Notes: a model not told the origin generated them from the letters alone. Positions 34,297-40,809 are shown, numbered from the stretch's first letter. The stretch: DNA of 64,000 nt from Escherichia coli (GCF_003334405.1 NZ_QOWM01000002.1), one strand, 5' to 3'. A program made the numbers and translations.

Positions 34297-35006
34297 AAAT
34301 TGAATTAACGGTGAATGGGCTGAAGATACAGGCACAGTACCAGAACGAAGAGATTGAAAATGTACATAAACCGTTGCTGCACATGTTGGCGGCCTTACAG
34401 ACGGTAAATCCGCAGCGGCGTACGGTGGTTTTTCTTTGCGCTCCGCCGGGGACGGGTAAATCAACCCTAACCACCTTCTGGGAATATCTCGCGCAACAAG
34501 ACCCGGAACTGCCCGCTATTCAGACGCTCCCGATGGATGGTTTTCACCATTACAATAGCTGGCTGGATGCGCATCAATTGCGCCCCTTCAAAGGCGCACC
34601 AGAGACATTTGACGTTGCGAAACTGACGGAAAATCTGCGCCAGGTCGTGGAAGGGGATTGTACGTGGCCGCAGTACGATCGACAAAAGCATGATCCTGTT
34701 GAAGATGCGTTGCACGTTACCGCACCACTCGTCATCGTCGAAGGAAACTGGTTGTTACTGGATGATGAAAAGTGGCTGGAGTTGGCATCTTTCTGCGATT
34801 TTTCTATTTTTATTCATGCACCTGCTCAAATTCTGCGGGAGCGCTTGATTAGTCGTAAAATTGCGGGAGGATTAACGCGGCAAGTAGCCGAAGCATTTTA
34901 TGCCCGCACCGATGGCCCCAATGTCGAGCGTGTGCTGATGAATAGCCGTCAGGCCAATCTGATAGTAGAGATGACTGAAGAAGGCCGGTATCACTTCACA
35001 AGCTGA
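34293..35006 (+). CDS. yggC: P-loop NTPase / putative kinase YggC
   Basis: 237-aa ORF with Walker A CAPPGTGKST; GTGA overlap with yggD. Confidence 0.8.
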   Translation: MKIELTVNGLKIQAQYQNEEIENVHKPLLHMLAALQTVNPQRRTVVFLCAPPGTGKSTLTTFWEYLAQQDPELPAIQTLPMDGFHHYNSWLDAHQLRPFKGAPETFDVAKLTENLRQVVEGDCTWPQYDRQKHDPVEDALHVTAPLVIVEGNWLLLDDEKWLELASFCDFSIFIHAPAQILRERLISRKIAGGLTRQVAEAFYARTDGPNVERVLMNSRQANLIVEMTEEGRYHFTS

Positions 35007-35080
35007 CAATTTATTCCAGTTATTGTAGGGTTATTATTACGCCAGCCTGGAATAAAGCTTCCCACAAAAGGGGATAAAAG

Positions 35081-35096
35081 TGTGATGTGAGTCAGA
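35081..35096 (+). promoter_or_regulatory. Putative CRP site upstream of epd
   Basis: tgtgatgtgagtcaga partially matches TGTGA-N6-TCACA; located ~200 bp upstream of epd. Confidence 0.4.
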
Positions 35097-35290
35097 TAAA
35101 TGTCTTCTTCGGCTGGACAAACATTCCTTTTATTCCACGTTTCGCTTATCCTAGCTGAAGCGTTTCAGTCGATTAAATGTTCGACAATTAACCAATCAGT
35201 CGCAGTTTGCGACAGGTAAGGTTTCCCCGGACGATTTGCTGGATTACTCTGTCTGGCAAATTTGCTCAGGGAAAACCTTGCAGGAGATCT

Positions 35291-36310
35291 ATGACCGTAC
35301 GCGTAGCGATAAATGGCTTCGGTCGCATCGGGCGTAATGTGGTTCGTGCTTTGTATGAATCCGGACGCCGGGCGGAAATTACCGTGGTGGCAATCAACGA
35401 ACTGGCGGATGCTGCGGGCATGGCGCATTTGTTGAAATATGACACCAGCCATGGCCGTTTTGCATGGGAAGTACGACAGGAACGCGATCAACTTTTTGTT
35501 GGTGATGACGCCATCCGCGTATTGCATGAACGTTCACTGCAATCGCTCCCCTGGCGTGAACTTGGCGTTGATGTAGTCCTCGACTGCACCGGCGTATATG
35601 GCTCCCGCGAGCATGGCGAAGCGCATATTGCCGCCGGGGCCAAAAAAGTGCTCTTTTCACATCCTGGCAGTAACGATCTCGACGCGACCGTTGTTTACGG
35701 CGTCAATCAGGATCAACTTCGTGCGGAACACCGCATCGTTTCTAACGCTTCCTGTACCACGAATTGCATAATTCCCGTCATCAAATTGTTAGATGATGCG
35801 TACGGTATTGAGTCCGGCACTGTGACCACAATTCACTCCGCCATGCACGATCAACAGGTTATTGATGCATACCATCCTGACCTGCGTCGCACCCGGGCAG
35901 CCAGCCAGTCGATCATTCCGGTCGATACTAAACTGGCCGCCGGTATCACACGATTTTTTCCGCAATTTAACGATCGCTTTGAAGCGATTGCGGTACGTGT
36001 GCCAACCATAAATGTGACGGCAATCGATTTAAGCGTGACGGTGAAGAAACCTGTAAAAGCCAATGAAGTCAACCTGTTGCTGCAAAAAGCAGCACAAGGT
36101 GCATTTCATGGTATAGTTGACTATACGGAATTGCCGTTGGTCTCTGTAGATTTTAACCACGATCCGCACAGTGCCATTGTCGATGGCACCCAAACCCGGG
36201 TCAGTGGCGCACACCTGATCAAAACGTTGGTCTGGTGCGATAACGAATGGGGCTTTGCTAACCGAATGCTCGACACGACGTTAGCTATGGCTACTGTTGC
36301 TTTCAGGTAA
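35291..36310 (+). CDS. epd: Erythrose-4-phosphate dehydrogenase
   Basis: ORF 35207..36310; start trimmed to [17 protein letters not shown] (339 aa); GAPDH family. Confidence 0.95.
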
Positions 36311-36359
36311 GACGCAAGCAGCGTCTGCAAAACTTTTAGAATCAACGAGAGGATTCACC

Positions 36360-37523
36360 ATGTCTGTAATTAAGATGACCGATCTGGATCTTGCTGGGAA
36401 ACGTGTATTTATCCGTGCGGATCTGAACGTACCAGTAAAAGACGGGAAAGTAACCAGCGACGCGCGTATCCGTGCTTCTCTGCCGACCATCGAACTGGCC
36501 CTGAAACAAGGCGCAAAAGTGATGGTAACTTCCCACCTGGGTCGTCCTACCGAAGGCGAGTACAACGAAGAATTCTCTCTGCTGCCGGTTGTTAACTACC
36601 TGAAAGACAAACTGTCTAACCCGGTTCGTCTGGTTAAAGATTACCTCGACGGCGTTGACGTTGCTGAAGGTGAACTGGTTGTTCTGGAAAACGTTCGCTT
36701 CAACAAAGGCGAGAAGAAAGACGACGAAACCCTGTCCAAAAAATACGCTGCACTGTGTGACGTGTTCGTAATGGACGCATTCGGTACTGCTCACCGCGCG
36801 CAGGCTTCTACTCACGGTATCGGTAAATTCGCTGACGTTGCGTGCGCAGGCCCGCTGCTGGCAGCTGAACTGGACGCGCTGGGTAAAGCACTGAAAGAAC
36901 CTGCTCGCCCGATGGTGGCTATCGTTGGTGGTTCTAAAGTATCTACCAAACTGACCGTTCTGGACTCCCTGTCTAAAATCGCTGACCAGCTGATTGTTGG
37001 TGGTGGTATCGCTAACACCTTTATCGCGGCACAAGGCCACGATGTGGGTAAATCCCTGTACGAAGCTGACCTGGTTGACGAAGCTAAACGTCTGCTGACC
37101 ACCTGCAACATCCCGGTTCCGTCTGATGTTCGCGTAGCAACCGAGTTCTCTGAAACTGCACCGGCTACCCTGAAATCTGTTAACGATGTGAAAGCTGACG
37201 AGCAGATCCTGGATATCGGTGATGCTTCCGCTCAGGAACTGGCTGAAATCCTGAAGAATGCGAAAACCATTCTGTGGAACGGTCCGGTTGGCGTGTTCGA
37301 ATTCCCGAACTTCCGCAAAGGTACTGAAATCGTGGCTAACGCTATCGCAGACAGCGAAGCGTTCTCCATCGCTGGCGGCGGCGACACTCTGGCAGCAATC
37401 GACCTGTTCGGCATTGCTGACAAAATCTCCTACATCTCCACTGGCGGCGGCGCATTCCTCGAATTCGTGGAAGGTAAAGTACTGCCTGCAGTAGCGATGC
37501 TCGAAGAGCGCGCTAAGAAGTAA
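36360..37523 (+). CDS. pgk: Phosphoglycerate kinase
   Basis: ORF 36297..37523; start trimmed to [16 protein letters not shown] (387 aa). Confidence 0.95.
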
Positions 37524-37599
37524 AAAATCACAGGGCAGGGAAACCTGCCCTTGTTTCAGCGCGCTTTTAGAGCACGCAATTTTTCATACTCTAAATAAT

Positions 37600-37725
37600 T
37601 CGAGTTGCAGGAAGGCGACAAGAGAGTGAATCCCCAGGAGCTTACATAAGTAAGTGACTGGGGTGAGCGAACGCAGACGCAGCACATGCAACTTGAAGTA
37701 TGACGAGTATAAGGCCCGACGATAC
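37600..37725. repeat. ERIC / IRU intergenic repeat element
   Basis: gtgaatccccaggagcttacataagtaagtgactggggtgagcg matches the ERIC core (the sequences used for ERIC1R/ERIC2 primers). Confidence 0.8.
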
Positions 37726-37737
37726 AGGACAAGAGAC

Positions 37738-38817
37738 ATGTCTAAGATTTTTGATTTCGTAAAACCTGGCGTAATCACTGGTGATGACGTACAGAAAGTT
37801 TTCCAGGTAGCAAAAGAAAACAACTTCGCACTGCCAGCAGTAAACTGCGTCGGTACTGACTCCATCAACGCCGTACTGGAAACCGCTGCTAAAGTTAAAG
37901 CGCCGGTTATCGTTCAGTTCTCCAACGGTGGTGCTTCTTTTATCGCTGGTAAAGGCGTGAAATCTGACGTTCCGCAGGGTGCTGCTATCCTGGGCGCGAT
38001 CTCTGGTGCGCATCACGTTCACCAGATGGCTGAACATTATGGTGTTCCGGTTATCCTGCACACTGACCACTGCGCGAAGAAACTGCTGCCGTGGATCGAC
38101 GGTCTGTTGGACGCGGGTGAAAAACACTTCGCAGCTACCGGTAAGCCGCTGTTCTCTTCTCACATGATCGACCTGTCTGAAGAATCTCTGCAAGAGAACA
38201 TCGAAATCTGCTCTAAATACCTGGAGCGCATGTCCAAAATCGGCATGACTCTGGAAATCGAACTGGGTTGCACCGGTGGTGAAGAAGACGGCGTGGACAA
38301 CAGCCACATGGACGCTTCTGCACTGTACACCCAGCCGGAAGACGTTGATTACGCATACACCGAACTGAGCAAAATCAGCCCGCGTTTCACCATCGCAGCG
38401 TCCTTCGGTAACGTACACGGTGTTTACAAGCCGGGTAACGTGGTTCTGACTCCGACCATCCTGCGTGATTCTCAGGAATATGTTTCCAAGAAACACAACC
38501 TGCCGCACAACAGCCTGAACTTCGTATTCCACGGTGGTTCCGGTTCTACTGCTCAGGAAATCAAAGACTCCGTAAGCTACGGCGTAGTAAAAATGAACAT
38601 CGATACCGATACCCAATGGGCAACCTGGGAAGGCGTTCTGAACTACTACAAAGCGAACGAAGCTTATCTGCAGGGTCAGCTGGGTAACCCGAAAGGCGAA
38701 GATCAGCCGAACAAGAAATACTACGATCCGCGCGTATGGCTGCGTGCCGGTCAGACTTCGATGATCGCTCGTCTGGAGAAAGCATTCCAGGAACTGAACG
38801 CGATCGACGTTCTGTAA
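37738..38817 (+). CDS. fbaA: Fructose-bisphosphate aldolase class II
   Basis: ORF 37654..38817; start trimmed to MSKIFDFVKPGVITGDD (359 aa). Confidence 0.95.
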   Translation: MSKIFDFVKPGVITGDDVQKVFQVAKENNFALPAVNCVGTDSINAVLETAAKVKAPVIVQFSNGGASFIAGKGVKSDVPQGAAILGAISGAHHVHQMAEHYGVPVILHTDHCAKKLLPWIDGLLDAGEKHFAATGKPLFSSHMIDLSEESLQENIEICSKYLERMSKIGMTLEIELGCTGGEEDGVDNSHMDASALYTQPEDVDYAYTELSKISPRFTIAASFGNVHGVYKPGNVVLTPTILRDSQEYVSKKHNLPHNSLNFVFHGGSGSTAQEIKDSVSYGVVKMNIDTDTQWATWEGVLNYYKANEAYLQGQLGNPKGEDQPNKKYYDPRVWLRAGQTSMIARLEKAFQELNAIDVL

Positions 38818-38841
38818 GATATTCCTTTCTGCTTATCTCAA

Positions 38842-38868
38842 GGCCCGCTCTGCGGGTCTTTTTTTCGC
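38842..38868 (+). terminator. Rho-independent terminator after fbaA (copy 1)
   Basis: hairpin gcccgctctgcgggt followed by cttttttt. Confidence 0.75.
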
Positions 38869-38881
38869 CAAAAGCAAAATT

Positions 38882-38980
38882 GCCTGATGCGCTACGCTTA
38901 TCAGGCCTACACGTATCCTGCAATATATTGAATTTGCAGGTTTTTGTAGGCCGGATAAGGCGTTCACGCCGCATCCGGCA
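38882..38980. repeat. REP/BIME pair
   Basis: gcctgatgcgctacgcttatcaggcctac and gccggataaggcgttcacgccgcatccggc. Confidence 0.85.
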
Positions 38981-39009
38981 TGACAAAGCGCACATTGATA
39001 TCTGTCTGA

Positions 39010-39035
39010 GCCCCGCTCTGCGGGGATTTTTTCGC
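39010..39035 (+). terminator. Second terminator-like hairpin (copy 2) upstream of mscS
   Basis: gccccgctctgcggggatttttt, near-identical to the 38842..38868 terminator. Confidence 0.6.
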
Positions 39036-39174
39036 CAAAAGCAAGGTGATTCAGATGAGAAATCTGTGATCTATTTGGCAAAATTATGCTTTATTGTTTA
39101 CCCTTGTCAGACTGCCCGTCATAAGGCGGCGGAGTGTATTTCTCCATTTTGAGTCAGTTGAAAAGGAATATTGA

Positions 39175-40035
<861 letters not shown>

Positions 40036-40173
40036 TCAACGCTGAGGCCAGATAATACTCTCTGGCCTCTCTCTTATTAGTTTTTCTGATTGCCAATTAA
40101 TATTATCAATTTCCGCTAATAACAATCCCGCGATATAGTCTCTGCATCAGATACTTAATTCGGAATATCCAAC

Positions 40174-40809
40174 GTGTTTTCTTATTACTTTCAAGGTCTT
40201 GCACTTGGGGCGGCTATGATCCTACCGCTCGGTCCACAAAATGCTTTTGTGATGAATCAGGGCATACGTCGTCAGTACCACATTATGATTGCCTTACTTT
40301 GTGCTATCAGCGATTTGGTCCTGATTTGCGCCGGGATTTTTGGTGGCAGCGCGTTATTGATGCAGTCGCCGTGGTTGCTGGCGCTGGTCACCTGGGGCGG
40401 CGTAGCCTTCTTGCTGTGGTATGGTTTTGGCGCTTTTAAAACAGCAATGAGCAGTAATATTGAGTTAGCCAGCGCCGAAGTCATGAAGCAAGGCAGATGG
40501 AAAATTATCGCCACCATGTTGGCAGTGACCTGGCTGAATCCGCATGTTTACCTGGATACTTTTGTTGTACTGGGCAGCCTTGGCGGGCAACTTGATGTGG
40601 AACCAAAACGCTGGTTTGCACTCGGGACAATTAGCGCCTCTTTCCTGTGGTTCTTTGGTCTGGCTCTTCTCGCAGCCTGGCTGGCACCGCGTCTGCGCAC
40701 GGCAAAAGCACAGCGCATTATCAATCTGGTTGTGGGATGTGTTATGTGGTTTATTGCCTTGCAGCTGGCGAGAGACGGTATTGCTCATGCACAAGCCTTG
40801 TTCAGTTAG
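40174..40809 (+). CDS. argO: Arginine exporter (LysE family)
   Basis: 211-aa ORF from GTG start; recognised as ArgO/YggA. Confidence 0.9.

Follow-up and report, generated by a model that had tools for sequence, protein, structure and literature searches.

Why is the spacer between pgk and fbaA 214 nt long in Escherichia coli, when it is about 90 nt long in related genera, and does the additional sequence influence the mRNA that carries it? We examined these questions in a window of 64,000 nt of E. coli DNA (GCF_003334405.1, NZ_QOWM01000002.1), in which a first-pass annotation, prepared from the sequence alone, had placed an ERIC/IRU repeat in this spacer within the epd-pgk-fbaA operon.

Identity and extent of the repeat

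According to the ORF list and a comparison with RefSeq K-12, the + strand of the window from 35,000 to 40,200 carries yggC-epd-pgk-fbaA-mscS-argO. A window position p corresponds to the MG1655 coordinate 3,108,982 - p, and this map was tested both on gene ends and on the repeat. Transferred by the map from RefSeq K-12, pgk (387 aa) occupies 36360..37523 on the + strand, and fbaA, encoding class II fructose-bisphosphate aldolase (ATG start; 359 aa and 1080 nt in RefSeq), occupies 37738..38817 on the same strand. The spacer between them, 37524-37737 (+), has an equal length in RefSeq K-12 and is 100% identical to that of many complete E. coli genomes. In the mechanical ORF list, pgk starts from a TTG at 36297 (408 aa), an over-call that begins 63 nt, or 21 codons, too early (36297-36359).

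We searched the window with the 44-nt ERIC core, GTGAATCCCCAGGAGCTTACATAAGTAAGTGACTGGGGTGAGCG, which carries the ERIC1R and ERIC2 primer sites. Its only occurrence, on the + strand at 37626-37669, is exact (44/44, 0 mismatches), and it was found in none of 100 dinucleotide-preserving shuffles even when 3 mismatches were allowed. As independent references we used Wilson & Sharp's consensus for E. coli (127 nt), which also contains the core, and the Salmonella SeRU-1 copy (PMC2759123, Table 1a). When reverse-complemented, these references aligned to positions 37586-37711, corresponding to consensus positions 2-127, with identity in 115 of 129 columns (89%) for the E. coli consensus and in 117 of 126 positions, without gaps, for SeRU-1 (93%). 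Because the alignment spans consensus positions 2-127 at 89-93% identity, the similarity runs along the whole length of the element, including the core and both ends. The full-length ERIC/IRU element of 127 bp thus lies at 37585..37711 on the + strand (MG1655 3071271-3071397 by blastn), its + strand is the mRNA sense, and in this orientation the core reads GTGAATCCCC...GGGGTGAGCG. We are practically certain that it is a member of the ERIC/IRU (RU-1) family.

The repeat and its location in the operon, as proposed in the first-pass annotation, are therefore confirmed by the exact core and the full-length alignment; that annotation had named alignment to the ERIC consensus as a check, and no poor match appeared outside the core. 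Its interval of 37583-37737 does contain the element, but starts 2 nt early and ends 26 nt too far, and the overshoot takes in the fbaA leader with its Shine-Dalgarno sequence, stopping immediately ahead of the fbaA ATG.

The copy shares with its family the length of 127 bp, the exact core, the terminal inverted repeats, the TA-type termini, the intergenic but transcribed location and the occurrence in multiple copies. The differences are minor: its first base is C rather than T, so that the left TA is now CA, and the stem pair 34:93 (alignment numbering) is A/A. With the spacer as megablast query, E. coli genomes contained ERIC copies at a median of 6 places (range 1-11), and blastn revealed more copies at loci of Yersinia, Hafnia, Photorhabdus and Citrobacter. 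The Rfam search at gathering thresholds reported no family over the pgk-fbaA spacer. Elsewhere in the window, matches above the gathering score included naRNA4/CssrE, which is REP-derived (10448-10518, +), SIB antitoxin RNA (52017-52167, -) and 6S RNA (52816-52999, -).

Insertion site and alleles without the repeat

One genome per species was scanned with a degenerate pattern representing the first 32 nt of fbaA, which yielded at least 120 loci, and for each locus the pgk-fbaA spacer was measured and searched for ERIC; Salmonella, Shigella, E. fergusonii and Klebsiella fall outside the listed loci. Among the matches listed, most of the Enterobacteriaceae examined have no ERIC in this spacer, and ERIC-free spacers of 86-97 nt were observed in Citrobacter werkmanii, C. 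youngae, Enterobacter, Kluyvera, Kosakonia, Pluralibacter, Cedecea and others. Since ERIC-free spacers elsewhere have this length, and since removal of 127 nt from 214 nt leaves 87 nt, the ERIC is an insertion, which explains the difference in spacer length between E. coli and related genera.

In the ancestral spacer, pgk is followed by two conserved hairpins (GGGCAGGgaaaCCTGCCC, then GCGCGC...GCGCGC) and next by ...CTTTCCAAGGCCGAAGATACAGGAC...ATG; the ERIC is flanked by the second of these hairpins on one side and by the ribosome-binding region of fbaA on the other. An empty site is present in the cryptic Escherichia lineage L082, which is approximately 94.8% identical to E. coli over 8 kb and has a spacer of 89 nt that reads ...AATTTTC TA CAGCCCGACG... 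at this point. The empty allele carries a single TA (TTTTC TA CAGCCC); the filled site reads ...GAGTA TA AGGCCC at its right junction and TTTTT CA TACTCT at its left. Filled and empty flanks show 3-4 differences within 8 nt of the junction, which points either to mutation of one TA copy or to divergence of the flanks. A transposase for ERIC is not known (PMC2759123).

In Citrobacter sp. FP75, a full-length ERIC (L021 3742-3868) that is 77% identical to the E. coli copy occupies the same position, and the spacer is also 214 nt long; the other Citrobacter species among the matches listed have an empty spacer of 88 nt. Its presence is compatible both with independent insertion at one target site and with an old, shared insertion followed by several losses. 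ERICs were also found near fbaA but outside the pgk-fbaA spacer, in Hafnia paralvei (L079 6226-6352, about 200 nt 3' of fbaA), Yersinia thracica (L054 2158-2284) and Y. artesiana (L019 8860-8986).

E. albertii (L008) has E. coli-like flanks and a short ERIC that consists of the ends only; approximately 72 central nucleotides, including the entire core and the central stem-loop, are gone. With a 52-nt query over the junction of this short form (about 290-360 of L008), matches of 80-95% identity were obtained at other loci in 3940 of the 5426 E. coli genomes, one of them being the kdpE-speF spacer of CFT073 (L125 1501-1558). From their similar deletion boundaries, such short ERICs look like a recurrent sub-family rather than the product of a one-off deletion.

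Of 5426 complete E. coli genomes, 5418 contain 80% or more of the spacer, and a 44-nt query over the empty-site junction matched exactly 8 of the 5426. We retrieved three of these 8 (PS10-3, AH04 and MB53; L122, L123 and L124, respectively), all of which have a spacer of 89 nt at positions 2458-2546 of the retrieved sequence. Over epd-mscS these three share 99.0-99.5% identity with the window, compared with about 97.4% with L082, and on these values we rejected the possibility that the 8 genomes are mislabelled cryptic Escherichia. Because they are true E. coli, the element is dispensable.

Precise excision was considered as the source of the empty allele and rejected, because the junction TTTTCTACAGCCCG is not derivable from the filled flanks by simple deletion and equals the L082 allele. 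Judged by its junction, the ERIC-free spacer is an allele in its own right and not the result of a recent excision. The identity of this junction to that of L082, in surroundings of about 5 kb that are E. coli-like, suggests a short introgressed tract or an old polymorphism.

Predicted fold and RNA 3' ends

The terminal inverted-repeat arms of the element, 37586..37609 on the left and 37687..37710 on the right (both + strand), pair with each other; each is 24 nt long, they are 79% complementary with 77 nt between them, and they are paired in the minimum-energy fold. Inside lies a central stem-loop of 32 nt (CCCCAGGAGCTTAC / GTAAGTGACTGGGG; 37632..37663, +), which was recovered both as an inverted repeat, with 14-nt arms that are 79% complementary, and in the folds. 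We computed a folding energy of -48.9 kcal/mol for the ERIC RNA, compared with -24.9 +/- 3.0 kcal/mol for shuffled sequences (z -7.9; 0 of 200 shuffles as stable), and the identical hairpin was formed when the whole spacer was folded. The 44-nt core by itself reached -22.6 kcal/mol (z -6.1). The expectation in the first-pass annotation that the element adds secondary structure to the transcript is thus supported, at the level of a predicted fold.

We further aligned seven ERIC copies, namely the pgk-fbaA copy, four from other genera and two published sequences. RNAalifold predicted 41 pairs, 9 of them with compensatory double changes, and the pairs of the terminal arms are retained. As a comparison of sequences, this shows that the ERIC family keeps its palindrome; a palindrome kept in a MITE can, however, reflect requirements at the DNA level as well as a function of the RNA.

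Two further hairpins precede the element. Nine nucleotides past the pgk stop, a GC-rich hairpin (AGGGCAGG gaaa CCTGCCCT, then TGTTT; 37532..37551, +) folds with -17.1 kcal/mol; it belongs to the ancestral spacer and not to the ERIC, is kept in Citrobacter, Enterobacter, Kluyvera, Pluralibacter and others, and is a weak intrinsic terminator or a 3' stabiliser of pgk transcripts. The second, smaller hairpin of the ancestral spacer (GCGCGCTTTTAGAGCACGC; 37559..37577, +; -8.6 kcal/mol, z -2.3) is likewise conserved across genera. The pgk-proximal hairpin also scores as an intrinsic terminator on the - strand, where GTGATTTTTT follows it, compared with only TGTTT on the + strand, and could stop antisense transcription arriving from fbaA; no RNA end on the - strand of the window was seen among the retrieved table rows of Adams 2021.

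RNA 3' ends were taken from Supplementary file 1 of Adams et al. 2021 (PMC7815308), a Term-seq data set based on uniquely mapped reads only. The register was checked on the thrL row, in which base 51 of a 61-nt string represents the 3' end, and repeated listings of an end were taken as the sheets of three growth conditions (LB OD 0.4, LB OD 2.0 and M63). A 3' end of the class 'orphan' at MG1655 3071314 (- strand), equivalent to window position 37668, is listed three times, with 24,316, 48,771 and 35,983 reads; in the same order of listings, the fbaA terminator has 160,555, 54,607 and 120,854 reads (PMC7815308). Position 37668 lies 5 nt 3' of the central stem-loop. A second end, of the class 'primary, pgk', at MG1655 3071427 (window position 37555) is listed twice and is absent from the presumed LB OD 2.0 listing (PMC7815308); it is located four bases past the pgk-proximal hairpin. 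The ERIC is therefore outside any CDS but inside a transcribed region, with 3' ends of the sense strand both within the element and upstream of it, and in the published data the element carries a 3' end of RNA rather than a 5' start site.

The same file contains six rows with the ERIC core, all in the same orientation and none in the opposite one. Three of these are the pgk-fbaA locus, and at least one is the copy in the aceF-lpd spacer (MG1655 127845, +), also in the same orientation, where the Term-seq 3' end lies 11 nt past the central stem.

The spacer downstream of fbaA (fbaA-mscS, 38818-39174) contains a duplication of the fbaA terminator: a hairpin, a T-run and CGCCAAAAGCAA occur at 38841-38877 and again at 39009-39044, with a period of 167-168 nt. 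Between the two copies lies a REP-type palindrome (38897-38959; Rfam ES036/CssrF, 38903-38945, - strand), and Term-seq 3' ends are recorded at both copies (MG1655 3070118/9 and 3069950; PMC7815308). In strain AH04 this spacer is 167 nt longer (525 compared with 358 nt), which suggests copy-number variation of the terminator unit.

Possible role in the pgk-fbaA mRNA

On balance we lean towards a combined reading in which a full-length ERIC insertion, without a promoter of its own, is co-transcribed with the operon and serves as a point of RNA processing or as a barrier to exonucleases. For the barrier or processing mechanism, taken separately, we rate the chances as somewhat below even. It would operate as follows. 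The ERIC inserted beside a TA in the ancestral spacer of about 87-89 nt, between the two post-pgk hairpins and the fbaA ribosome-binding site, and is transcribed within the pgk-fbaA and epd-pgk-fbaA mRNAs, in which its RNA is predicted to form a long, imperfect hairpin around an inner stem-loop of 32 nt that is very stable. Once the RNA had been cut by an endonuclease further 3', for instance within the right arm with its loose pairing, a 3'-to-5' exonuclease would come to a halt 5 nt 3' of this central stem-loop, the point at which some transcripts end. RNA containing pgk would in this way obtain a protected 3' end, read-through molecules would carry fbaA, and pgk and fbaA would be modestly uncoupled.

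Stable stems are known to halt 3'-to-5' exonucleases a few nucleotides to their 3' side, and REP elements, for example between malE and malF, are 3'-exonuclease barriers inside operons. Like these REP elements, the ERIC is a stable intercistronic repeat stem-loop with a 3' end a few nucleotides downstream, which fits protection of the upstream cistron; unlike them, it is of another family, size and sequence, and a true REP is found elsewhere in the window, 3' of fbaA (38897-38959). In Yersinia, co-transcribed ERICs act through RNase E on how stable the adjoining parts of the mRNA are, and their effect depends on orientation, according to the summaries of De Gregorio 2005 in PMC2229807 and PMC10969869. 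Those ERICs resemble the present copy in lying between co-transcribed genes, in forming an RNA hairpin and in being associated with differential RNA ends, represented here by a 3' end inside the element and a predicted fold; they differ in that the pgk-fbaA copy begins 61 nt after the pgk stop, neither overlapping nor abutting it, and the role of RNase E is described for the Yersinia copies. The Correia/NEMIS elements of Neisseria are, as ERICs are, MITEs with TA termini that are co-transcribed, form long hairpins and act as RNA processing sites; however, their sequence is unrelated, RNase III cleaves them in the stem of the terminal inverted repeats, and some copies carry a promoter or IHF sites (PMC10969869). 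From the strong fold, the reproducible 3' end, the stalling of exonucleases and the Yersinia precedent together, we infer that the repeat may act as a processing point or exonuclease barrier; this inference extends to the nucleases involved and to any influence on the Pgk:FbaA ratio.

Two considerations weigh on the barrier reading. The complete long hairpin should stall an exonuclease near its base at 37712 and not at 37668, so the model needs a cut in, or an opening of, the outer stem. In addition, 8 E. coli genomes and most related genera with the same operon do without the element, and E. albertii lacks the central stem-loop, so nothing indicates that the proposed activity is under strong selection. 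The 3' end at 37668 may also be no more than an innocuous intermediate of decay.

The main rival is a neutral one, in which the ERIC would be the fixed relic of an old MITE insertion, tolerated between the pgk hairpins and the fbaA ribosome-binding site, and the 3' end an intermediate of decay that has no effect on expression. The true E. coli genomes without the element (8, with epd-mscS 99.0-99.5% identical to the window), the ERIC-free spacers of most Enterobacteriaceae among the matches listed, the retention of the ends only in E. albertii and the stem mismatches of the present copy (C at position 1 and A/A at pair 34:93) are all consistent with such a passenger. Less easily accommodated are a 3' end that is reproducible in three conditions with approximately 15%-90% of the reads of the fbaA terminator, and the measurable effects of co-transcribed ERICs in Yersinia as those summaries give them; a hairpin of -49 kcal/mol in a highly expressed mRNA is also unlikely to be without any effect on decay. 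We give neutrality a substantial but clearly minority chance of being correct.

A stronger form of the barrier reading would make the ERIC a working RNA module, whose central stem-loop sets a stable pgk 3' end in all growth conditions and tunes the pgk:fbaA ratio, with copies in the same orientation acting alike in other highly expressed operons, such as aceF-lpd. This form we regard as doubtful.

Alternatively, the ERIC hairpin, or Rho acting in the spacer, could stop some polymerases, so that 37668 would be a site of termination or a trimmed Rho product and fbaA would be transcribed less than pgk. The 3' end is indeed located at a stable stem-loop, a 214-nt untranslated spacer could expose a Rho-loading sequence, and the pgk hairpin upstream already gives a terminator-like 3' end at 37555. 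Against such attenuation, MG1655 3071314 is absent from Supplementary files 2 and 3 of Adams et al., which list Rho regions and 3' ends upstream of ORFs, although this is a weak argument because the regions may carry other coordinates. The central stem is, moreover, followed by GGGGUGAGCGAACGC / UGAGCGAACGC, in which there is no U-tract, and the terminator scan made no call there, the stem being without the U-tract that completes an intrinsic terminator. Termination at the hairpin is thus unlikely, and attenuation in either form is improbable.

The first-pass annotation had suggested that the repeat provides internal promoter context for fbaA. A -35/-10 pair supplied by the element or its junction could in principle direct a monocistronic fbaA transcript; the spacer is long, and internal promoters are common in glycolytic genes. 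A consensus scan of 37524-37737 on both strands found no sigma-70-like promoter site, however, and ERIC-free spacers serve fbaA, an essential gene, both in 8 E. coli genomes and in further genera. Furthermore, 5'RACE with fbaA primers gave no product and no start site in the 214-nt spacer, and fbaA was found to depend on upstream promoters (Olvera et al. 2009, PMC2759082); the result applies to the growth conditions used. The suggestion is not upheld by these observations, and an internal promoter is very unlikely.

The remaining possibility concerns coding. The mechanical ORF list starts fbaA from a GTG (37654..38817, 387 aa), so that the frame reaches 84 nt back into the repeat, and the first-pass annotation had called this an over-call. 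The in-frame extension (37654..37737, +), which takes in the right half of the ERIC, is indeed an ORF-calling artefact. The fbaA leader 3' of the insertion (37712..37737, +) lies outside the repeat and contains the Shine-Dalgarno sequence AGGA at 37726-37729, 8 nt ahead of the ATG at 37738. The Shine-Dalgarno context GATACAGGAC, directly 5' of this ATG, is kept with or without the ERIC in the species compared, and the N-terminal sequence of FbaA is conserved in genera entirely without the repeat. GTG-37654 was thus rejected as the true start of fbaA, since RefSeq uses the ATG, the Shine-Dalgarno sequence is placed at the ATG and the extension is missing from ERIC-free spacers. A coding role in either form, as a real extension of FbaA from GTG-37654 or as the 42-aa peptide described for the ERIC reverse complement, has next to no chance of being correct: the frame is open from 37654 into fbaA, minus-strand ORFs are present at 37556..37732 and 37584..37868, and Delihas 2007 pointed out open frames in ERIC (PMC2759123), but the RefSeq and Shine-Dalgarno evidence favours the ATG, the extension is absent where the ERIC is absent and broken in E. 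albertii, and the GTG is buried in a stem of -22.6 kcal/mol.

The ERIC between pgk and fbaA is a feature of an already known kind. Such elements have been known since 1990-91; the ERIC/IRU/RU-1 descriptions are reportedly those of Sharples & Lloyd 1990 and Hulton et al. 1991, and the E. coli copies are said to have been catalogued by Wilson & Sharp 2006. A full-text literature search for ERIC jointly with fbaA and pgk returned irrelevant matches only. In the literature searched, we found no earlier description of the rare ERIC-free E. coli allele, of the short-form ERIC in E. albertii or of Term-seq 3' ends that coincide with ERIC central hairpins, but these details are minor and leave the element among the known kinds.

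For annotation, recognition of the repeat means that fbaA is no longer extended 28 codons upstream, and the importance of the finding beyond this correction is small. If the post-transcriptional reading is true, the locus would provide an E. coli model of a domesticated MITE hairpin that sets the mRNA levels of two glycolytic enzymes, for which the natural ERIC-free alleles would serve as controls. It would then extend the findings on Yersinia ERICs to E. coli, rather than open a new field.
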